Origin: a virus
Lineage: Duplodnaviria > Heunggongvirae > Uroviricota > Caudoviricetes
Virus record (IMG/VR): IMGVR_UViG_2880384115_000007
Reading direction: 5' to 3' (one strand)
Length of the DNA: 39,952 nucleotides
Part shown: in pieces, positions 3,159-39,952 of the stretch
Layout: each line of letters starts with the position of its first letter
How positions within the stretch are numbered: the first letter of the stretch is position 1
Program-made: the position numbers and the translations under genes
Notes under the pieces: model-generated
What the model was told of the DNA's origin: nothing
Databases searched by the model: none
The model's input: the letters and a program-made list of their open reading frames with translations, nothing else

Positions 3159-5621
3159 TCAATTCCCTGTTAATTGCAAAACTTGCTCTTCCAGCTTTTT
3201 AACCCTGCGTCTCATCATCGCAGATTCCAGAATCAGAGCCTCTTCATAACGGATACCGTAACATTCACCAGCCTCGACGGCTTCGCGTACCAGAACCTTT
3301 GTCTGTATAAGTGGGTAAACTCCTGCAGAATGCTCTTCTTCCGTCACATCCCTGTATTCTGCCGGGGTCTCATTCCACTTGTCATAACAGATAAATGCCA
3401 GTCGTGACACATCTATGCCTTCATTCTGAAATACACTGATAACATGCTGCGCAACTGCACCAAAGTGCCATCTTGCTCCGTCTTTACCTTTCACTTCGAT
3501 CCTGTCAAGGTACTGGTATGAAACCCATTCCACTCTTTCCCATGCGTCCAGTATTTTCTCATCAATAACCTCTGGAGCAGTCTTGAAACGCGCATCGGAC
3601 AGCACCGTAAACGCTGACTGGGTAAATCCCCCCGACCATGCACGACCAGCCAACCCAAGAGAATAAGTATTCGTTGTCGATGGTGTCATGGCTGAATCAG
3701 AAAACTGTATATATTCTGAATTTCCAGTAGATATTCGAATATTTCCATTTATTAGCGACATAGTGCCTTTAGTATTATCACTATTGAATAATTTCAATTG
3801 CGAACTTATACCGCCTCCCACAGCCAGAGATACATCGCCTTCAGCAAGCATTCTGAATTTATCTGCAGAAACAAGCGTCTGGTTAGCAAGGTTAAAATAT
3901 TTAACCCACCATTCAAAATGCCCTGACATAGTCCCAACGTACTGACCAAGCGCAGGGACGTGAACAACATTGCTATTTGTAGTGCCGTCTATACTGGAAA
4001 TACCAGTCACCGCTGATGCAGAACTCAGAATATTATTTCTGTCACCCGGATGTTTAATTTCAACAAAGTTCCTGATACACCCTTCCTCGAAGGTAACCAC
4101 GCCGGAAGAACTATACATGGGGAATATTGACGCATAATTACTGCGTGCAGCATCTAAGAAACGAATGGTTGTAGATGTCTGCAGATCTCCTGATTCATTT
4201 TTCCCATCACACCCAGTCATTAGAATATTACTGGCAATATTATTATTTCCCTGAACGGTGACGCCGTGCGCCTGCTTTGCGTCCGATTCAGAGTAATCAA
4301 CCAGCACATCCGAAATCAGGTTACCAGTCCCCTTGCCAACAACTACTGCGGCGTATTTTGGGTTGTTAGCCATTACACTGCTAATGATATTATTCGTTGG
4401 GGCAGTTTCCGTCTCAGTTCCATTGTAAACAACGTGCTGACACTCTTCACCAATAACATTGCTGACAATGTTATATTTTGCTGCTGTTTTAAGTTCCACT
4501 GCACCAAACTGAGGATAATTTCTGGCTATCACACCATCAATTAGCGTATTTTGCGATGAATCAAAAAGCACACAACCTGCTTTTTTATTATTTGCGAACC
4601 CTAAATACTCTCCTCTTATATCTCTAACAATGTAACCTGACGGAATACCATTATCCGGATAAGCGATCAAGCTAAATCCTGGTCCTCGCGTATTTGTAAA
4701 TCTGATATTTTTAACCGATACATCATGGCCACCTGAAAATGACACCTGGTGTCCCTGCACACTATCATCTGATTTATTTCCCATAATTGTTAGCGTACTA
4801 AGCATGCCACCATCGGGCATGTTAAAAACCAGATGATTACCATCTCTGTCATACTGTTTTATCGTTCCCCCACCTGTTCCGTACAAGCCACAACGTGAAA
4901 GAGAAACTAAAGATGTATTGAATACCCCTTCCGGAACAAAAACACTGCTAAACGAATGTAATGATTTTGTAAAAGCATCCTTGTTATCATTTAAGATTCC
5001 ATTTTGAGCTCCAAAATCCTTAATGCTGACACCATCACGCATCTTATCCTGGAACGTTCTGTATACCGCTCCAGAACCATACTGAATAAACCAACCAAAA
5101 CCACCAATAACTCCGGCGATTGCAGCATCGACATAATTACGCATTGAGCGATTATTTACAGCGTCCTGCTCAAGTGATGGATCGGCAAGGTTAGATATTC
5201 TGTTTTGCTTTGCATCGTAATATTTTGCAAGCAAAGATGGTTTCATCAATGCACGTCTGAACCACCCAAAACATCGCTGGATCAGCATCGTCAGGTAGTC
5301 AAATGCATCCTCATGAACTTCGGGGAAAAATTTTCCCTGATTGCGAAGATCAGTCTCCTGCACCACATCAAGCACACGCTCTATCGTGATTCGCCAGCCA
5401 GCAGCAAGCGGCGACGGAAGAACCACTGCACCGCCACTATAAGTTCCCGCCCCTGTTACCGTATAACCAGCATCCAGCACTAGTTTTGTAACGTTACCGT
5501 TAAGGTCAGACACCTGAACAACCAGGTCGGATTTTTTGAAAATACGGAAGGTATACGGAAATGATGTCGTAACGCCGTTACCTGTGTATTCGTTGTGGTC
5601 AACTTCGGTTGAGACCGTCAT
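3159..5621 (-). CDS. Tailspike / receptor-binding depolymerase with C-terminal self-cleaving chaperone domain
   Basis: 820 aa; N-terminal ~130 aa resemble the T7 gp17-type tail-fibre anchor; central Gly/Asn/Ser/Thr-rich repetitive region typical of beta-helix depolymerases; C-terminus (SDARFKT...WHFGAVAQHV) resembles peptidase S74 intramolecular chaperone domains; centre and C-terminus look AT-rich by eye. Confidence 0.8.
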   Translation of the reverse strand: MTVSTEVDHNEYTGNGVTTSFPYTFRIFKKSDLVVQVSDLNGNVTKLVLDAGYTVTGAGTYSGGAVVLPSPLAAGWRITIERVLDVVQETDLRNQGKFFPEVHEDAFDYLTMLIQRCFGWFRRALMKPSLLAKYYDAKQNRISNLADPSLEQDAVNNRSMRNYVDAAIAGVIGGFGWFIQYGSGAVYRTFQDKMRDGVSIKDFGAQNGILNDNKDAFTKSLHSFSSVFVPEGVFNTSLVSLSRCGLYGTGGGTIKQYDRDGNHLVFNMPDGGMLSTLTIMGNKSDDSVQGHQVSFSGGHDVSVKNIRFTNTRGPGFSLIAYPDNGIPSGYIVRDIRGEYLGFANNKKAGCVLFDSSQNTLIDGVIARNYPQFGAVELKTAAKYNIVSNVIGEECQHVVYNGTETETAPTNNIISSVMANNPKYAAVVVGKGTGNLISDVLVDYSESDAKQAHGVTVQGNNNIASNILMTGCDGKNESGDLQTSTTIRFLDAARSNYASIFPMYSSSGVVTFEEGCIRNFVEIKHPGDRNNILSSASAVTGISSIDGTTNSNVVHVPALGQYVGTMSGHFEWWVKYFNLANQTLVSADKFRMLAEGDVSLAVGGGISSQLKLFNSDNTKGTMSLINGNIRISTGNSEYIQFSDSAMTPSTTNTYSLGLAGRAWSGGFTQSAFTVLSDARFKTAPEVIDEKILDAWERVEWVSYQYLDRIEVKGKDGARWHFGAVAQHVISVFQNEGIDVSRLAFICYDKWNETPAEYRDVTEEEHSAGVYPLIQTKVLVREAVEAGECYGIRYEEALILESAMMRRRVKKLEEQVLQLTGN

Positions 5622-5724
5622 GTTAAATCTCCAGATAGTCGCAGCACCCGTTGCGCCGCATATCTGGTTATTCTATTACCTGAAAAACCACATATGGATA
5701 TAAAGGCTGTAAATACGAATAGAT

Positions 5725-5741
5725 ATTACCTTTCAGGTAAT
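5725..5741. promoter_or_regulatory. Dyad ATTACCTTTCAGGTAAT (TTACC-N5-GGTAA), candidate operator
   Basis: Perfect 7-3-7 inverted repeat between divergent tailspike gene and LexA-box gene; same dyad recurs at 10 other intergenic sites. Confidence 0.6.
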
Positions 5742-5777
5742 TTGCAAAACGTGCTGGATAGCAAACAAATTATTTGC

Positions 5778-5797
5778 TACTGTATAAATATACAGTT
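5778..5797. promoter_or_regulatory. LexA (SOS) box
   Basis: TACTGTATAAATATACAGTT matches the CTGT-N8-ACAG enterobacterial LexA consensus at 18 of 20 positions; directly upstream of the 5818..6075 gene. Confidence 0.8.
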
Positions 5798-5817
5798 ATT
5801 GCATGGAGAAGATTAAG

Positions 5818-6075
5818 ATGCAGCAGTATCACTATCCACTGGAAGAGGGATTTACCGAAAGGATTCACACGCCGGGAGGCGTCAGGTCACTGGTGGAGGG
5901 ATCGCACTTGATGAAATTACTCCGGGATCTCGATAAGGATGGATTTAATGTCGATGGCCCACTTGCCGAACTGACTGCACTGATTAACTACGTCACCAGC
6001 TCACAGATGTCTATGCAGGATCTGCAAACACATCTCGACTATTGTGCCGAACAATTACGAAAACAAACCAGATAA
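5818..6075 (+). CDS. Small LexA-controlled protein; candidate SOS-inducible antirepressor
   Basis: Start placed at second ATG (5818), which has a GGAG RBS; the 85-aa product aligns with the C-terminal ~65 aa of the Bro-N protein at 6391..7101; LexA box sits in its promoter. Confidence 0.5.
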   Translation: MQQYHYPLEEGFTERIHTPGGVRSLVEGSHLMKLLRDLDKDGFNVDGPLAELTALINYVTSSQMSMQDLQTHLDYCAEQLRKQTR

Positions 6076-6211
6076 GATTTGAAATTACCAATAGGAGTGC
6101 TTATATTTACCTTTGCAGTAAATTTACATCGCACTCCTCTTGTGCCATAGTAATCGGGCACTGGCAAAATCCAGTGCCGGGATTGGCGTCCCGGGTTACT
6201 AAGTGGCGCAT

Positions 6212-6235
6212 ACCACGCCAGACGTGGTTTTTTTA
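6212..6235 (+). terminator. Rho-independent terminator
   Basis: Stem ACCACG / CGTGGT with 5-nt loop followed by seven T; ends a structured untranslated stretch 6076..6235. Confidence 0.55.
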
Positions 6236-6390
6236 TGCGTTAAGCACAGCTATATCCGAATTATGGTGGGCTGGGCAGGGGTCCGAAAGGACGCCGGTAC
6301 CACTTAGGCCGGTACGCCAACCTTGTCCAGTTCACCACCAGTAATTGGCGTTGCGGTGGTGATTAAAATCACTAAGTGGAGATAACCACC

Positions 6391-7101
6391 ATGGCTAATG
6401 CTCAAACTGCCATCTTCAAATTTGAATCTGTTAACCCTATCCGTTCCATCATTATCGATGGCCAACCATGGTTTGTAGCCCAAGACGTTTGTAGTGCGCT
6501 GCGTATCCAAAACGTCACCCAAGCACTTGAAAAACTGGATGATGATGAAAGGTCTATGTTCAACATAGGGCATGAACATCGTGCAATTTTTGACAGCCGA
6601 GTAAAAGAGATCAACATTATCTCCGAGTCAGGCCTCTACACACTGATCCTCCGCTGCCGCGACGCAGTGACACCAGGCACTATCCCCTACCGCTTTCGTA
6701 AATGGGTTACAGGTGAGGTTCTTCCTCAGATCCGCCGCACCGGAAGTTACATTAAAAACTCGCTCCCGCAGGAAGAACGCATAAAGATGGTTGCCGACCA
6801 GGTAGCCAACGCCACAGCATCAGCAATGATGCAGGCAATGAAGATAGAGAACAAAACCTACAGTGCCCCACTGAAGCCCGGCTACCGTAGCCTGATTCAT
6901 TCTCCGTCTGGTGTTCTCGGCCTGACGGAGAACTCACTGCTGATGAATCTGCTGAACCAGTTACAGGACGACGGGCACGACGTATCGGGCGCGGCGGCGG
7001 AGCTGACCACCATGTTCTGCTACATCGTTGGTGTGAGCAAATGCCTGCGTGATATCCAGACGCACGCGGAGTACATCAACGACAAGGCAGGGTTCTTCTG
7101 A
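6391..7101 (+). CDS. Bro-N domain protein (antirepressor-like)
   Basis: Start at ATG 6391 with GGAG RBS (track start 6376 is GTG); N-terminus has Bro-N hallmarks (FKFESVNPIRSIIIDGQPWFVAQDV...LDDDER...FRKWVTGEVLPQIRRTGSY); C-terminal domain homologous to the 5818..6075 product. Confidence 0.75.
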   Translation: MANAQTAIFKFESVNPIRSIIIDGQPWFVAQDVCSALRIQNVTQALEKLDDDERSMFNIGHEHRAIFDSRVKEINIISESGLYTLILRCRDAVTPGTIPYRFRKWVTGEVLPQIRRTGSYIKNSLPQEERIKMVADQVANATASAMMQAMKIENKTYSAPLKPGYRSLIHSPSGVLGLTENSLLMNLLNQLQDDGHDVSGAAAELTTMFCYIVGVSKCLRDIQTHAEYINDKAGFF

Positions 7102-7173
7102 CGGGCGGCGGCACAGGGATGTGCCTTTAAATAATTCTGTACAGATTGCAGACTGGGGGTGAATAGCGTACTA

Positions 7174-7188
7174 TTACCTCAAGGGTAA
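7174..7188. promoter_or_regulatory. TTACC-N5-GGTAA dyad upstream of the moron gene
   Basis: TTACCTCAAGGGTAA about 60 bp upstream of ATG 7248. Confidence 0.5.
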
Positions 7189-7247: not shown

Positions 7248-7880
7248 ATGAGAACAAATACAACAAGAAAAGCGATGCCATACATTATCCCAGAAGCAGA
7301 TTTCGATAGAAAACTGAACATGTCTGAGAAGAACACTAGTCACACCGAAAGCTACTTAGCGAAAGGTGTGGTTGATTTCGTTCTTCCGGGATTCACAACA
7401 CCTTATGGTTATCGCCTTGTAAAATCTTGTAATGGCGATCATTACAGAATGATTACTACCAGCGATACTCCAGAAACGGTGTATGCGGTTAAGTTAATCT
7501 TTCGGGAAGATATCGTCGAAGCCAAAAGAACATGTACGCAGATCATGGTATGGCGTACGCCTAATGTTATTCATGACCGTGCTGTTCATGGTTTGCCTCA
7601 GATTTTTTTTCAGTTCTTCCTAGAGCAATATGCGATCGTTGTATCTGATGAGCAACAAACAATCGATGGGAGAAGATTCTGGGAAAGAATGATTTCTTGG
7701 GCTATAAACACCCCAGGATATAATGTATACGTTTCAGATGGCTCTGAAGAAGATAGACCTCTTAGCTTCATGGCATCATGGGATGATTTCTATAGCCAGT
7801 GGGCTGATTTCTGTTGGGGCAGTGATAAAGATGTGCATACCCACAGACTACTGGTTATAAGCAAAGATAAACTGCATTAA
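7248..7880 (+). CDS. Hypothetical protein, AT-rich moron
   Basis: 210-aa ORF with GGGAGG RBS and its own terminator; visibly more AT-rich than flanking phage genes; no recognisable motifs, no TM or signal peptide. Confidence 0.6.
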   Translation: MRTNTTRKAMPYIIPEADFDRKLNMSEKNTSHTESYLAKGVVDFVLPGFTTPYGYRLVKSCNGDHYRMITTSDTPETVYAVKLIFREDIVEAKRTCTQIMVWRTPNVIHDRAVHGLPQIFFQFFLEQYAIVVSDEQQTIDGRRFWERMISWAINTPGYNVYVSDGSEEDRPLSFMASWDDFYSQWADFCWGSDKDVHTHRLLVISKDKLH

Positions 7881-7882
7881 TA

Positions 7883-7907
7883 GAAGCCCGCAGCGCGGGC
7901 TTTTTTG
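7883..7907 (+). terminator. Rho-independent terminator
   Basis: GCCCGC-agc-GCGGGC stem-loop followed by six T, directly after the stop of 7248..7880. Confidence 0.7.
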
Positions 7908-7978
7908 TGGACGAAACAAAAGTCAGTGCTACACTCATTGACGCCACATTGAGGTGGCTTATAGATGGAAATTTCACA

Positions 7979-8140
7979 ATGAAAAAAGCATTTGCTGCAC
8001 TGTTCGTTTTGTTGTCTCTGGTAGCTTCAACTCAGGCCTTTGCCGGTCGTTGTCAGCACGACAGCGATACTGCCGCTGACGGCTCCCGCTGCGGTGGGCG
8101 TTCTGCGGATTCCCGCCCGGGCGGCGGTGGCATTCGTTAA
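7979..8140 (+). CDS. Small secreted Cys-containing peptide (hypothetical)
   Basis: In-frame ATG at 7979 gives 53 aa with signal peptide MKKAFAALFVLLSLVASTQAFA; sigma70-like promoter TTGACG-16-TATAGA at 7938..7965; below the usual ORF size cutoff. Confidence 0.35.
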   Translation: MKKAFAALFVLLSLVASTQAFAGRCQHDSDTAADGSRCGGRSADSRPGGGGIR

Positions 8141-24732: not shown

Positions 24733-24747
24733 TTACCTTTCAGGTAA
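24733..24747. promoter_or_regulatory. TTACC-N5-GGTAA dyad in the portal-operon promoter region
   Basis: TTACCTTTCAGGTAA; TTGACA hexamer at 24711..24716 and conserved box AACCACATATG at 24681..24691 nearby. Confidence 0.55.
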
Positions 24748-25069: not shown

Positions 25070-25146
25070 GTGGTATTAGCTCAGTTGGACAGAGCAACCG
25101 CCTTCTAAGCGGTTGGTCGCAGGTTCGAATCCTGCATGCCACGCCA
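25070..25146 (+). tRNA. tRNA-Arg (anticodon UCU)
   Basis: 77-nt cloverleaf folded by hand: 7-bp acceptor stem (one GU), D-arm GCTC/GAGC, anticodon stem ACCGC/GCGGT with loop CTTCTAA (anticodon TCT), T-arm GCAGG-TTCGAAT-CCTGC, 3' CCA encoded. Confidence 0.85.
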
Positions 25147-27875: not shown

Positions 27876-27984
27876 AACCACCGTGGTAATAGTTACCGTT
27901 TTGGTAATAGTACCATGCAAAATAAAGCCGCCATAGTTGGCGGCAGTATCCAAAACCGTCAAATTCATCATGCATAATCTACTC

Positions 27985-31335: not shown

Positions 31336-31412
31336 TTACCTCTGAGGTAATTAAAAACCACATAAGACACGAAATCAATAGATTTTAGAATATTTTATTA
31401 CCTAACAGGTAA
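31336..31412. promoter_or_regulatory. Promoter/operator cassette with two TTACC-N5-GGTAA dyads and conserved box
   Basis: Dyads at 31336..31350 and 31398..31412; box AAAAACCACATA at 31353..31364; TCGACA-like hexamer just upstream in gene orientation. Confidence 0.55.
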
Positions 31413-33680: not shown

Positions 33681-33743
33681 TCACCCATAAGGTAACAAAA
33701 ATCAAGGATAGTTACCTATGAGGTGCATTTACCCGTTGGGTAA
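33681..33743. promoter_or_regulatory. Tripartite operator region between cI-like and cro-like genes
   Basis: Three dyads with identical 5-bp spacing: TCACC-N5-GGTAA (33681..33695), TTACC-N5-GGTGC (33712..33726), TTACC-N5-GGTAA (33729..33743). Confidence 0.6.
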
Positions 33744-33798: not shown

Positions 33799-34383
33799 AT
33801 GAAAAGTATCCAGGACGTCCGCAGGCAAAATCTCAACGACTTGATCGACCGTGAATTCAATGGTGTTCAGACGCGGATGGCAGAAAAACTTGGAACTCAG
33901 GCAAATCTGGTAAACCGCTGGGCTCTTGGCAAGAAGGTTATCGGCGACCAGGTTGCGCGAAAAATTGAAGCTGCCGCCAATAAACCACGTAACTGGCTTG
34001 ATATCGATCGCTCGCTTTCTCAGGAAGGTTTTCAGCCTGTCGGCCCAAGCGACATTGGTCAGCTGGCGGCTCACAACCTGGAACGCTGGATGAGCGAAAG
34101 CCGCGACCTTTCAACACAGGGAAAACTTCACCGCGCATCCGGCGTCGCCCAGGTGACAATCAGCCGCCTGTTAAACAATGAGGTCAGCGTTTCCATTTCC
34201 ACCCTGGAGAATGTTGCATCCGCATTCGGGCGTCACGGCTATGAATTACTGATTCACCCGCACGACCCTGCGACCATCAACTATGACCGCTCGCGCTACG
34301 CATTGTTACCCGAAACCGAGAAAGCAAAGATCGAAAGTTATATTGAATTTGTCATCAACCAGAACGAAAAAAACAAACAATAA
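33799..34383 (+). CDS. CI-like prophage repressor, two HTH domains, no S24 peptidase domain
   Basis: N-terminus (MKSIQDVRRQNLNDLIDREFNGVQTRMAEKLGTQANLVNRWALGKK) resembles phage CI-repressor HTH domains; second HTH-like segment (VAQVTISRLLNNEVSVSISTLENVA); no Ala-Gly / Ser...Lys autocleavage module. Confidence 0.65.
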   Translation: MKSIQDVRRQNLNDLIDREFNGVQTRMAEKLGTQANLVNRWALGKKVIGDQVARKIEAAANKPRNWLDIDRSLSQEGFQPVGPSDIGQLAAHNLERWMSESRDLSTQGKLHRASGVAQVTISRLLNNEVSVSISTLENVASAFGRHGYELLIHPHDPATINYDRSRYALLPETEKAKIESYIEFVINQNEKNKQ

Positions 34384-34440: not shown

Positions 34441-34517
34441 TTACCTAATGGGTAATTTTTTTAACTCATATCTATTGACATCAAACCAAATACGCATAAT
34501 TATTACCTCAACGGTAA
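34441..34517 (+). promoter_or_regulatory. PL-like early promoter with two operator dyads
   Basis: Dyads at 34441..34455 and 34503..34517 bracket a consensus -35 TTGACA (34475..34480); the second dyad sits where the -10/+1 is expected. Confidence 0.55.
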
Positions 34518-38695: not shown

Positions 38696-39952
38696 TTATT
38701 TATTACTGTCTTCCATCCACTTCTCAAACTTCGACGGGGAGAACGGAATCAGATCCGTATGCTCCCCGTCAATCCAGGAATCAATCATATCTGCCCACTG
38801 CTGCAACATGTAGGCGCGCTGTCTGGCGTATTCCGCTTTGTTATATACGGCGCGCACACCTTTCTGCTCATGTGCCAGAGCCTTTTCAATCCAGTCTGAA
38901 GGATAACCAGCCTCATGCAACAACGTACTGGCTGTACGGCGCATATCGTGTACGGTGAAGTCCTGAATATGCTCACCATCTTCATTTATTATTTTCACCG
39001 TTCTGTCGATCAGAGAGTTCAACGCGGCATTAGATAATGGCTTCCGGAAATTGTAACGACCAGGAACCAGGTATTCACTTCCACCAGCGCACATCTGCAA
39101 CCCAACCAATATATCCTGTGCTTGTTTAGGCAGGTAAATAACGTGCGCCCGGCTTCCCTTCATGCGGCCTGAAGGAATTGTCCATGTCCATTTTTTAAAA
39201 TCTATTTCATCCCACGTTGCATTGGTGAATTCGCCTTTACGAACCATAGTGATAAGCACCAGCTTTAAAGCCATTTTCATAGTGCCCATAGCACCAATGG
39301 CATCCAGCGTGCGGAAGAACAGACCAATTTCTTCTGGTGTCAGTGTTCGCTCTCGTGGTTTAAATATGGCGATAGACGAAGGTTTAATGTCAGCAGCAGG
39401 ATTAAACAAACCATGACCACGGTCATTGGCGTGACGGTATACGCTGCTGATGATCTCCCTGGCCTGTACTGCTGTTGCCCGACCACCGCGTTCGACAATC
39501 CGGTCACACAAATCACGAACCATCGATGTGGTAATTTCAGCCATCATTTTGTTGCCAAGAACCGGAAGTATGTCACGGTCGATCACCGCCTGCTTCATTG
39601 CGCGGGTACTTTCAGCCAGGATGACGTGTTTCATATAACTGTCGGTATGTACCGCAAACGTCTCGGCACCACGAATCTTTTTGATACCGTCACGTTTAGC
39701 CGCAGCCGGCGACTGGCCTGCTTTAAGCAGCTTCTTTGCAGCAATCAGTTCTTCTCGCGCTTCTGCCAGGCTGATACCGTCACGCCCATACTGCCCGATT
39801 ACCAGTGTTTCGCGGCGACCGTTGATACGGTAGTCATAGCGAAACGAGACCGTACCTGACGTAAGCACAGCTACATACAGCCCGTCACGATCGGAAACTT
39901 TGTACAGTTTGTCCTGTGGCTTGAGGTTTTTTAATTTTGTATCGGTAAGCAC
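38696..39952 (-). CDS. int: Tyrosine integrase, P4-like family (N-terminus at the window edge)
   Basis: 418 aa; N-terminal arm domain (LTDTKLKNLKPQDKLYKVSDRDGLYVAV) and C-terminal catalytic domain (…HDMRRTASTLL…ALAH…VYNKAEY); ORF begins with GTG at the last window base so the true start may lie outside. Confidence 0.85.
   Translation of the reverse strand: MLTDTKLKNLKPQDKLYKVSDRDGLYVAVLTSGTVSFRYDYRINGRRETLVIGQYGRDGISLAEAREELIAAKKLLKAGQSPAAAKRDGIKKIRGAETFAVHTDSYMKHVILAESTRAMKQAVIDRDILPVLGNKMMAEITTSMVRDLCDRIVERGGRATAVQAREIISSVYRHANDRGHGLFNPAADIKPSSIAIFKPRERTLTPEEIGLFFRTLDAIGAMGTMKMALKLVLITMVRKGEFTNATWDEIDFKKWTWTIPSGRMKGSRAHVIYLPKQAQDILVGLQMCAGGSEYLVPGRYNFRKPLSNAALNSLIDRTVKIINEDGEHIQDFTVHDMRRTASTLLHEAGYPSDWIEKALAHEQKGVRAVYNKAEYARQRAYMLQQWADMIDSWIDGEHTDLIPFSPSKFEKWMEDSNK

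Follow-up and report, generated by a model that had tools for sequence, protein, structure and literature searches.

How would a prophage be induced by DNA damage when its repressor has no self-cleavage domain, and what would a second gene carrying the domain of the inducing antirepressor add? A locus in an E. coli prophage of the epsilon15-like podovirus type raises these questions. We analyzed the whole 39,952-bp stretch that contains it (the window). A preliminary description, made from the sequence, had proposed that a small antirepressor derepressed by LexA inactivates a repressor that does not cleave itself, and that a larger Bro-N protein shares its domain. The answer that we favor, at a probability of about 75%, is that the locus combines an SOS antirepressor of the SPC32H type with an RNA-gated paralog of the P1 immI/Gifsy-1 IsrK type, both aimed at one repressor. 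The Ant/Rep switch is already known, and the locus opens no new class of mechanism.

Table 1. Features of the locus and of the repressor region, in window coordinates
Feature	Position	Strand	Basis or detail
Tailspike gene	3159-5621	-	Flanks the ant locus
Palindrome TTACCTTTCAGGTAA, probable Rep operator	5726-5740		Ends 1 nt before the candidate ant -35
Candidate ant promoter	5742-5771	+	-35 TTGCAA at 5742-5747; weak -10 at about 5765-5771; by eye and conservation
LexA box TACTGTATAAATATACAGTT	5778-5797		18/20 versus the E. coli consensus
ant, 85-aa antirepressor, SPC32H Ant ortholog	5818-6075	+	PDB 5D50_E "Anti-repressor protein"
Second operator-like palindrome TTACCTTTGCAGTAA	6107-6121		One arm mismatch; abuts the -35 of the isrK/C4 promoter
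isrK/C4 promoter-like site	6123-6151	+	TTTACA-17-CATAGT with upstream TG; promoter scan; conserved in relatives
isrK-like sRNA/c4-a1b1 element	6158-6234	+	Rfam isrK, 67.7 bits (gathering score 50)
Decoy b1 TTGGCGT	6183-6189	+	In the isrK-like sRNA
Decoy a1 CTAAGTGG	6199-6206	+	In the isrK-like sRNA
Intrinsic terminator of the isrK-like sRNA	Stem 6212-6228 plus T run	+	Predicted
C4 antisense RNA	6259-6342	+	Rfam C4, 66 bits (gathering score 45), full model length
C4 apical loop a' CCACTTAG	6300-6307	+	Recognition sequence
C4 single-stranded b' ACGCCAA	6314-6320	+	Recognition sequence
C4 target in the Bro-N gene leader	6345-6382	+	b2 TTGGCGT at 6345-6351; a2 CTAAGTGG at 6372-6379
Bro-N/Ant-domain fusion, putative second antirepressor, 236 aa	6391-7101	+	Bro-N 6439-6726; Ant-like 6853-7083
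Third operator-like palindrome TTACCTCAAGGGTAA	7174-7188		Exact; upstream of the 210-aa ORF
210-aa ORF	7248-7880		Next gene after the Bro-N gene
Virion genes	From 8664 onward	-	Flank the ant/Bro-N locus
Operator-like cluster between the cro-like gene and rep	33681-33743		33681-33695 (1 mismatch), 33712-33726 (2), 33729-33743 (exact)
rep, 194-aa repressor, presumed Ant target	33799-34383	+	PDB 5D50_A; two HTH_3-type domains

The small antirepressor gene, its LexA box and the repressor

The ant locus lies in the late region, as the preliminary description had stated, on the strand opposite its flanking genes. It runs antiparallel between the tailspike and virion genes, the position and orientation of ant in SPC32H. 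The 85-aa ORF described there is present and is preceded by GGAGA at 5805 to 5809; we took 5818 as the conserved start because the ATG at 5803, although in frame here, falls outside the reading frame in SPC32H. We found that residues 2 to 84 of the product match chain E of PDB 5D50 (E = 1.6e-47). The small Ant is 87% identical to SPC32H Ant by alignment and 89% identical to the annotated ant by tblastn. In PHROGs it matches phrog_450, phrog_15539 and phrog_1760; beyond these and a weak DUF724 match there were no profile matches. In NCBIfam, neither Ant nor the Bro-N protein had a match, and the two downstream ORFs had none either.

The Rep/Ant lytic switch of SPC32H was reportedly characterized by Kim and Ryu (2013, J Virol 87:11775) and Kim et al. 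(2016, PNAS 113:E2480), with structures in PDB 5D4Z and 5D50. SPC32H Ant is reported to be a tetramer that binds Rep and releases it from DNA.

We found that the box upstream of ant, described earlier as near-consensus, is the sole site in the window with up to three mismatches to the 20-mer LexA consensus, and that none of 100 dinucleotide-preserving shuffles contained such a site. We judged significance on this 20-mer test, which replaced a count of the CTGT-N8-ACAG core; the core alone occurs three times against 0.74 expected, a number that 7 of 100 shuffles reached and that is not significant. The other two core sites have GC-rich spacers. The box aligns column for column with that of SPC32H, and its position is kept across genera. 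The SPC32N box differs there by ACAG to AAAG, a point mutation that reportedly makes Ant constitutive. The ant promoter was not called by a sigma-70 consensus scan, and its weak hexamers were read by eye; its position is modeled on 6107 to 6128, where operator and -35 have the identical geometry.

Rep matches chain A of 5D50, "Repressor", over residues 1 to 190, its full length (E = 4e-42). It had been described as a CI-like repressor without an S24 autopeptidase. Our Pfam search agreed, returning HTH families only and no S24 peptidase match. A cryptic autocleavage domain, raised earlier as a possibility that would count against the model, was likewise not found by Pfam, and the protein is a full-length Rep homolog. 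Thus, the proposal of a LexA-derepressed small antirepressor and a repressor without self-cleavage gains from the match of Ant and Rep to the characterized SPC32H pair and from the homology of the box to the site mutated in SPC32N. Rep is 100% identical to the Rep proteins of phiV10 and ZX5. Since its identity to SPC32H Rep is only 42%, against 87 to 89% for Ant, conservation of the Ant-Rep interface is assumed rather than demonstrated.

The preliminary description had overlooked a set of operator-like palindromes. Exact copies of TTACC-N5-GGTAA number 9 in the window (0.1 expected) and 10 in SPC32H (0.05 expected), a 90- to 200-fold excess across the two phages. In each, copies concentrate in the rep/cro intergenic region; the SPC32H counterpart of the cluster listed in Table 1 lies between rep and the divergent gene next to it. 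Besides the copies in Table 1, the predicted Rep regulon in the window includes palindromes at 24733, 27893, 31336, 31398, 34441 and 34503. The palindrome also adjoins the -35 of both local promoters, those of ant and isrK/C4, with identical spacing. The copy upstream of ant is conserved in SPC32H and phiV10; at the isrK promoter, phiV10, ZX5, the Klebsiella phage and Tyrion all keep perfect arms around a variable spacer. On this sequence evidence, the palindrome is probably the Rep operator. SPC32H thus resembles the window in its small Ant, its two-HTH Rep without S24, its LexA box, its gene placement and its palindromes. It differs in having neither the isrK/C4 RNAs nor a Bro-N/Ant-domain gene 3' of ant, and in its more distant Rep.

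A Bro-N paralog behind isrK-like and C4 RNAs

The 236-aa ORF described earlier as a Bro-N protein matches Pfam Bro-N over residues 17 to 112 (E = 1e-19). Its C-terminal 77 residues (155 to 231) match 5D50_E (E = 2.2e-13). Ant residues 2 to 75 align with residues 155 to 228 of the Bro-N protein at 42% identity (E = 1e-15). The homology that had been claimed between the small product and the C-terminal ~65 aa of the Bro-N protein is therefore real; its extent had been set somewhat too short, since 74 residues align. Nineteen columns are invariant across both paralog classes. We take the fold as settled because Ant and the Ant-like domain are 87% and 40% identical, respectively, to the solved chain.

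We found the Ant-like domain by tblastn in 32 phage records, essentially those with Rep (36) and the small Ant (35), whereas the full-length query reached 1098 records, mainly through the Bro-N domain. The restriction of the C-terminal domain to phages with this Rep family argues for a cognate target, and we infer that this shared domain is what the Bro-N protein uses to bind Rep. Neither this protein nor the ORFs downstream gave a PADLOC hit.

The Bro-N gene has a studied ortholog in vB_EcoP_ZX5. Overexpression of ORF4, an "anti-repressor" (GST-tagged, during infection), lowered lysogens ~1000-fold, from 1e9 to 1e6, and rep mRNA by 75% (Li et al. 2022, PMC9782041). The authors regarded Bro-N domain function as poorly defined, and LexA, the RNAs, SPC32H and a small Ant go unmentioned in their paper. 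The gene in the window and ORF4 are one and the same (80% identity overall, ~99% from residue 75), and ZX5 has an identical Rep and the same ant-isrK/C4-BroN layout. The two phages differ in the N-terminal 75 residues of this protein and in the C4 recognition sequence, which is CTAAAAGG in ZX5 and CTAAGTGG in the window. The earlier suggestion of a repressor-contact role for the shared domain has indirect support from the 5D50 Ant match and from the restriction of the domain, among isolated phages, to those that encode Rep. Bro-N antirepressors would then appear as modular proteins, with a generic N-terminal domain and a repressor-specific C-terminal domain.

The 315-bp gap between ant and the Bro-N gene holds isrK and C4 RNA elements, which had also been overlooked; with them, the Bro-N gene would be gated by RNA and not merely governed by LexA. 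The predicted transcription start of the isrK/C4 promoter is the first base of the isrK match. The c4-a1b1 model scored 44.1 bits over 6145 to 6197, slightly under its gathering score of 46.7. The C4 region folds with z = -6.4. We found exact complementarity of a' to a1 and a2 over 8 nt and of b' to b1 and b2 over 7 nt. The a2 site overlaps the Shine-Dalgarno sequence GGAGA (6378 to 6382), 8 nt before the ATG at 6391. The ORF list contains no plausible icd-like leader ORF between C4 and this ATG, and no orf45-type ORF either.

In relatives, a', a1 and a2 covary through six specificity types, each a' fitting its own a1 and a2; in Tyrion, b', b1 and b2 have switched together as well. This three-way covariation shows that selection on RNA control continues. 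We scored specificity as contiguous pairing with the C4 apical loop alone, and cognate pairs reached 8 to 11 nt, against at most 7 nt for most noncognate pairs. Specificity has limits even so, since G-U pairs allow the Klebsiella loop to bind the targets in the window. This matrix replaced one of duplex energies, in which inclusion of the C4 hairpin stem bases had blurred the difference between cognate and noncognate pairs. We also dropped a candidate pairing between the start-codon region (6386 to 6392) and the 5' strand of the C4 stem, which is absent in phiV10 and ZX5.

Proposed circuit and alternatives

We propose that, in the lysogen, LexA on its box would block ant. After DNA damage, RecA-stimulated cleavage of LexA would allow Ant to be made. 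By homology with 5D50, Ant would bind Rep and remove it from its operators, leading to lytic growth with Rep uncleaved. This first unit (5726 to 6075) would be the E. coli ortholog of the SPC32H switch. In the second unit (6107 to 7101), the operator-abutted promoter would first drive an isrK-like RNA, whose terminator would be leaky, then C4 and then the Bro-N protein. C4 would pair at two short sites with the leader of the Bro-N gene, and the overlap with the ribosome-binding site would keep translation off. The isrK-like RNA could be a decoy for C4 because it carries the same two sequences. The second unit may provide another input or, when Rep begins to fail, a latch that commits the phage. 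The tandem would then be a compact natural case of one repressor-binding domain under two controls, transcriptional SOS control and antisense RNA.

It is possible, though we would sooner bet against it, that the two units form one circuit. From the ant stop codon to the isrK terminator, the scan predicted no other terminator, and SOS-induced ant transcripts should therefore end with the isrK-like a1/b1 decoy. These transcripts would bring both Ant and an RNA sponge for C4, freeing translation of the second antirepressor, and the C4 alleles (CTAAGTGG versus CTAAAAGG) would confer an RNA-based immunity specificity. If this were so, the response would be strengthened as Rep left the palindrome at the isrK promoter, and the resulting protein-plus-RNA feed-forward latch would render induction irreversible. 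The C4 alleles among phiV10-like prophages with identical Rep would then amount to a second immunity within an otherwise homoimmune group.

We consider it unlikely that the small Ant acts alone and that the isrK/C4/Bro-N cassette is accessory or decaying, perhaps providing anti-immunity against other prophages on superinfection, or functionless. The Bro-N gene is dispensable for this type of phage: it is missing in Salmonella phages, its phiV10 copy is broken inside the Ant-like domain, and SPC32H, epsilon15 and SPN1S have a working switch without the cassette. As a cassette, the isrK/C4 DNA is widespread, occurring in 253 phage records including Stx phages, and recombination has exchanged both the C4 specificity and the 5' portion of the Bro-N gene relative to ZX5. 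An accessory cassette fits poorly, however, with a C-terminal domain confined to phages with this Rep family, with the covariation that signals ongoing selection on RNA control, and with the shift of ZX5 toward lysis when ORF4 was overexpressed. Intact copies of the gene also occur in the window, ZX5, TL-2011b, Tyrion and the Klebsiella phages, and a query spanning 5700 to 7110 is matched over at least 80% of its length in 209 complete E. coli genomes.

Because SPC32H Ant is reportedly a tetramer, the Ant-like domain of the Bro-N protein could instead be an oligomerization module only, with the Bro-N DNA-binding domain acting on another target and Rep not sequestered. The identity of only ~40% to Ant and the ill-defined function of the Bro-N domain leave room for this, and the residues invariant between both classes could equally serve folding or tetramerization. 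We nevertheless find it quite improbable given the strict co-occurrence of the domain with Rep-encoding phages, the antirepressor direction of the ZX5 phenotype, including the loss of rep mRNA, and the placement of the gene under C4 control, which governs antirepressors in P1 and Gifsy-1. Hardly credible at all is a reading of the palindrome at 5778 to 5797 as a chance or non-LexA site, with induction by RecA-stimulated repressor self-cleavage as in lambda. We found nothing in its favor beyond the default expectation for lambdoid phages; against it stand the uniqueness of the 18/20 site and its absence from the shuffles, the conserved position of a box whose homolog bears the SPC32N mutation, and the lack of an S24 domain in Rep.

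Relation to known systems and distribution

The immI region of P1 and P7 consists of the c4 antisense RNA, icd and ant under a C1-controlled promoter, and its recognition sequences differ between P1 and P7 immunity specificities. The window shares with it a C4-family RNA in the leader of an antirepressor gene, a1/b1 sites upstream and a2/b2 sites at the ribosome-binding site, and allelic recognition sequences. Where the P1 promoter is controlled by the repressor C1, that of the window has a repressor-operator-like site to which Rep may bind. In contrast to P1, which has the icd leader ORF, a2 in the window overlaps the Shine-Dalgarno sequence of the antirepressor gene itself. The specificity domain of the antirepressor has the SPC32H Ant fold, and the phage is an epsilon15-like podovirus rather than P1-like.

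In Gifsy-1, the cassette isrK-STnc1160-orf45-anrP controls a Bro-type antirepressor and prophage induction; there, the short IsrK RNA works in trans as an activator of translation and has a part in induction (Hershko-Shalev et al. 2016, PMC4825925). The window likewise has an RNA of the isrK family that ends in a leaky intrinsic terminator, then a C4-like processed RNA and a Bro-type antirepressor. It differs from Gifsy-1, which has the coupled ORF orf45, in that its cassette lies directly 3' of a LexA-controlled gene with no terminator between them. We saw no sign of the Ant-like C-terminal domain in Gifsy AnrP, and tblastn gave no Gifsy matches.

Gifsy prophages also encode the LexA-controlled antirepressors GfoA and GfhA (Lemire et al. 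2011, PMC3121763). These, Tum of coliphage 186 and the window would have one logic in common: a small antirepressor, kept off by LexA, disables a phage repressor that is not cleaved. The preliminary description had named the Gifsy antirepressors and Tum as analogs. The shared logic stands, but the true homolog is SPC32H Ant. Profile searches (Pfam, NCBIfam and PHROGs) placed the Bro-N protein in Pfam Bro-N but the small Ant in no Tum or Gifsy antirepressor family, so GfoA, GfhA and Tum are functional analogs and not family members.

In RefSeq, PHROGs and Pfam, the small Ant is still without a name or function despite its crystallized homolog, and carrying over what is known of SPC32H would correct its annotation. 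For prophages with this locus, we predict induction through LexA and not through repressor cleavage. We found the locus in 533 of 5,426 complete E. coli genomes (~10%), many of them pathogenic, including K1, APEC, O157 and O103 backgrounds.

The predicted LexA-controlled antirepressor and its repressor

The preliminary description proposed that the prophage is induced by a LexA-derepressed antirepressor made from a small gene (ant). We found that the LexA box and the 85-codon ORF are present as described. The box, TACTGTATAAATATACAGTT, matches the E. coli LexA consensus at 18 of 20 positions. It was the only site in the window with three or fewer mismatches to the 20-mer, and no such site occurred in 100 dinucleotide-preserving shuffles; the bare CTGT-N8-ACAG core, scored alone across the window, was not significant. 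The ant product (85 aa) matched chain E ("Anti-repressor protein") of PDB entry 5D50 over its whole length (E=1.6e-47), and the 194-aa CI-like repressor (Rep) matched chain A ("Repressor"; E=4e-42). Entry 5D50 is the complex that Rep and Ant of Salmonella phage SPC32H form. As had been claimed, a domain search found no S24 peptidase domain in Rep, which has two helix-turn-helix domains.

When the regions upstream of ant were aligned, the box of the window fell exactly on the SPC32H box. The annotated ant of SPC32H also occupies the same slot, between the tailspike and virion genes and antiparallel to both. The sister phage SPC32N differs from SPC32H in the ant upstream region by a single change, ACAG to AAAG, inside the LexA box. 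Kim and Ryu reportedly found in 2013 that an ACAG-to-AAAG box mutation makes Ant constitutive and that Rep stays uncleaved during the SOS response and is inactivated by Ant. The 5D50 matches and the homology of box and slot thus bear out the proposed interpretation, and we concluded that, on every feature testable here, unit 1 (LexA box plus ant, 5726-6075) belongs to the SPC32H Ant/Rep family. The analogues first named, Gifsy-type prophages and coliphage 186 Tum, hold for the way of working; however, profile searches detected no relatedness of Ant to Gifsy GfoA/GfhA or 186 Tum. All 138 clusters of the small Ant family come from Enterobacterales and are nearly always labeled "hypothetical"; no Pfam model covers the family. 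A passage of PMC9638917 describes Rep binding palindromic sites as a tetramer and tetrameric Ant binding two Rep dimers, thereby breaking the Rep tetramer.

The best DNA matches of the window were HEMP4, TL-2011b, ZX5, and phiV10, and its Rep is 100% identical to those of phiV10 and ZX5; the window is an E. coli prophage of the phiV10-like (Uetakevirus) type. Divergence from SPC32H is asymmetric, with Ant 87 to 89% identical and Rep only 42%, whereas Tyrion shows the opposite trend (Ant 84%, Rep 78%). Since ant and rep lie 28 kb apart and have apparently been reassorted, Ant presumably recognizes a conserved Rep surface.

Probable RNA control of the Bro-N gene, and its Ant-like domain

Control by RNA of the second gene, which encodes the Bro-N protein, is the element missing from the preliminary description. 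The 315 bp between ant and the Bro-N gene folds much better than shuffled versions of it (z=-6.4) and matches three Rfam families (isrK, C4, and c4-a1b1), with an intrinsic terminator at the end of the isrK match. The exact complement of the C4 apical loop, CCACTTAG (6300-6307), is CTAAGTGG, which occurs twice, at 6199-6206 and 6372-6379; the latter copy overlaps the Bro-N gene Shine-Dalgarno sequence. ACGCCAA (6314-6320), single-stranded in C4, is complementary to TTGGCGT at 6183-6189 and 6345-6351. The P1 immI region has C4 recognition sequences a' and b', upstream targets a1/b1, and targets a2/b2 near the ribosome-binding site (RBS). The layout here is the same, except that the window has no icd-like leader ORF.

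Features of the locus and of the surrounding prophage
Feature	Coordinates	Strand	Details
Tailspike	3159-5621	-	epsilon15/phiV10-type N-terminus; C-terminal Peptidase_S74 (endosialidase chaperone) domain
Palindrome copy	5726-5740		upstream of ant; ends one base before TTGCAA hexamer
LexA box	5778-5797
ant ORF	5818-6075	+	85 codons; GGAGA nine bases before start
Second promoter-like site	6079-6107	+	TTGAAA-17-TATATT, 10/12 matches
Palindrome copy	6107-6121		one arm mismatch; ends one base before isrK promoter -35
Promoter-like site, extended -10	6123-6151	+	predicted start is first base of isrK match
c4-a1b1 target motif	6145-6197	+	Rfam, 44.1 bits, slightly below threshold of 46.7
isrK match	6158-6234	+	Rfam, 67.7 bits (gathering score 50)
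C4 antisense RNA	6259-6342	+	Rfam, 66 bits (gathering score 45)
Bro-N ORF	6391-7101	+	236 codons; Pfam Bro-N at residues 17-112
Palindrome copy	7174-7188		upstream of ORF at 7248
ORF	7248-7880	+	210 aa; phrog_1349, unknown function
ORF	7907-8140	+	77 aa; signal-peptide-like N-terminus; phrog_3117, phrog_14503, "membrane associated protein," moron category
Other palindrome copies	24733-24747, 27893-27907, 31336-31350, 31398-31412
tRNA gene	25070-25143	+	Rfam tRNA, 71 bits
Other palindrome sites	33681-33743, 34441-34455, 34503-34517
rep	33799-34383	+	194 aa
Tyrosine integrase	38696-39952	-	at window end

We compared this region in phiV10, ZX5, TL-2011b, a Klebsiella phage, Enterobacter phage Tyrion, Hafnia phage yong2, and Salmonella phage 118970_sal3. 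All seven relatives have isrK and C4. The C4 loop sequence falls into six types, each with matching changes at both the upstream target and the one near the RBS; phiV10, ZX5, and TL-2011b, for example, have the loop CCTTTTAG and CTAAAAGG at both targets. In Tyrion, b', b1, and b2 have also switched together. Contiguous pairing of the apical loop alone spans 8 to 11 nt with cognate targets and mostly 7 nt or less with noncognate ones, the exceptions involving G-U pairs. Such coordinated change at three sites would be difficult to account for if the pairing had no function. A recombination breakpoint lies inside the Bro-N gene (window 6259-6620 versus ZX5 1659-2020), the first ~75 codons being ~50% identical to ZX5 and the remainder ~99%. 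Both the C4 recognition loop and its targets lie in the segment swapped relative to ZX5, so phiV10-like prophages that share an identical Rep have at least two C4 alleles. The homologous locus of Gifsy-1, isrK-STnc1160-orf45-anrP, has been studied: its short IsrK RNA activates translation in trans, and the locus plays a part in inducing the prophage (PMC4825925).

The claimed homology between the two proteins was also found: residues 155 to 228 of the Bro-N protein match residues 2 to 75 of Ant (42% identity, E=1e-15), and its C-terminal 77 residues directly match the crystallized Ant of 5D50 (E=2.2e-13). Nineteen alignment columns are invariant among standalone Ants and Bro-N fusions from four phages. 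A tblastn search with just the C-terminal domain found 32 phage records, essentially the same set as those with a Rep homologue (36) or a small Ant (35); the full-length protein found 1,098, nearly all via the Bro-N domain. The C-terminal domain and this repressor family thus go together. This co-occurrence, the best computational support available, suggests that the Ant-like domain is the repressor-contact module. Some experimental support comes from ZX5, whose ORF4 is an orthologue of the Bro-N protein (~99% identical from residue 75 onward): overexpression of this "anti-repressor" during infection lowered lysogens from 1e9 to 1e6 and reduced rep mRNA by 75% (PMC9782041). That report mentions neither LexA, SPC32H, the small Ant gene, nor the RNAs, and the small Ant is annotated as hypothetical. 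The Bro-N gene is missing in SPC32H, epsilon15, and SPN1S and is broken within the Ant-like domain in phiV10 (2287-2966), where it is annotated as a 194-aa protein and a 29-aa ORF encoding the domain end. It is therefore not essential to this phage type.

An operator-like palindrome and a model for both units

The palindrome TTACC-N5-GGTAA occurs in nine exact copies in the window (0.1 expected) and 10 in SPC32H (0.05 expected). Both phages have clusters of copies on either side of rep, in the interval that separates it from the divergent cro-like gene and immediately downstream, and further copies lie ahead of other transcription units. At the isrK promoter, four relatives keep the arms while the 5-bp spacer varies freely. 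We read the palindrome as the Rep operator, and it is probably also that of Cro. Both antirepressor units would then also be under Rep, which parallels C1 control of P1 immI. Palindromes precede most transcription units, not rep and cro alone. The pattern is similar in SPC32H, where one site lies upstream of the small terminase gene. This distribution suggests that the repressor governs a global regulon, as P1 C1 does. The second promoter-like site lies directly upstream of the 6107 palindrome, which is thus placed between two candidate promoters, recalling the paired P51a/P51b promoters of immI. The arms are identical in the window and SPC32H despite 42% Rep identity, and one may ask whether their immunities differ and, if so, in what way.

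According to our model, in the lysogen LexA would block ant, while the Bro-N fusion would be held off by C4 and probably by Rep too. Upon DNA damage, LexA would be removed, and the Ant then made would disassemble Rep tetramers. As Rep occupancy falls, the isrK promoter would open, and the isrK-like RNA would compete for C4, allowing translation of the second Ant-domain protein to reinforce the decision. From the stop codon of ant up to the isrK terminator, no other terminator was predicted, so ant transcripts may themselves carry the decoy (a1/b1) and directly couple unit 1 to unit 2 (the isrK/C4/Bro-N cassette, 6107-7101).

Known systems, distribution, and neighboring genes

Both the genetics and the structure of the unit 1 system have already been worked out in a related phage. 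Unit 2 is of the same kind as the P1 and Gifsy-1 cassettes, that is, a C4/isrK-controlled antirepressor, but it lacks the leader ORF, and its specificity domain is an Ant paralogue. Every part is known singly, and we regard the finding as correctly rediscovering a type of system already known, with an unreported addition of modest interest; we found no description of the juxtaposition of the two units in the searchable literature. The locus has a match in 533 of 5,426 complete E. coli genomes, and in 209 of these the match covers at least 80% of the query. Several of the closest are K1 strains (CE10 O7:K1, APEC O1:K1:H7).

Neither of the two ORFs that follow the Bro-N gene is in SPC32H, and ZX5 has different genes at this position, so they look like variable cargo; Pfam and PADLOC searches with the first gave no match. 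The tRNA gene within the prophage has a counterpart in the SPC32H tRNA-Arg at the equivalent place.
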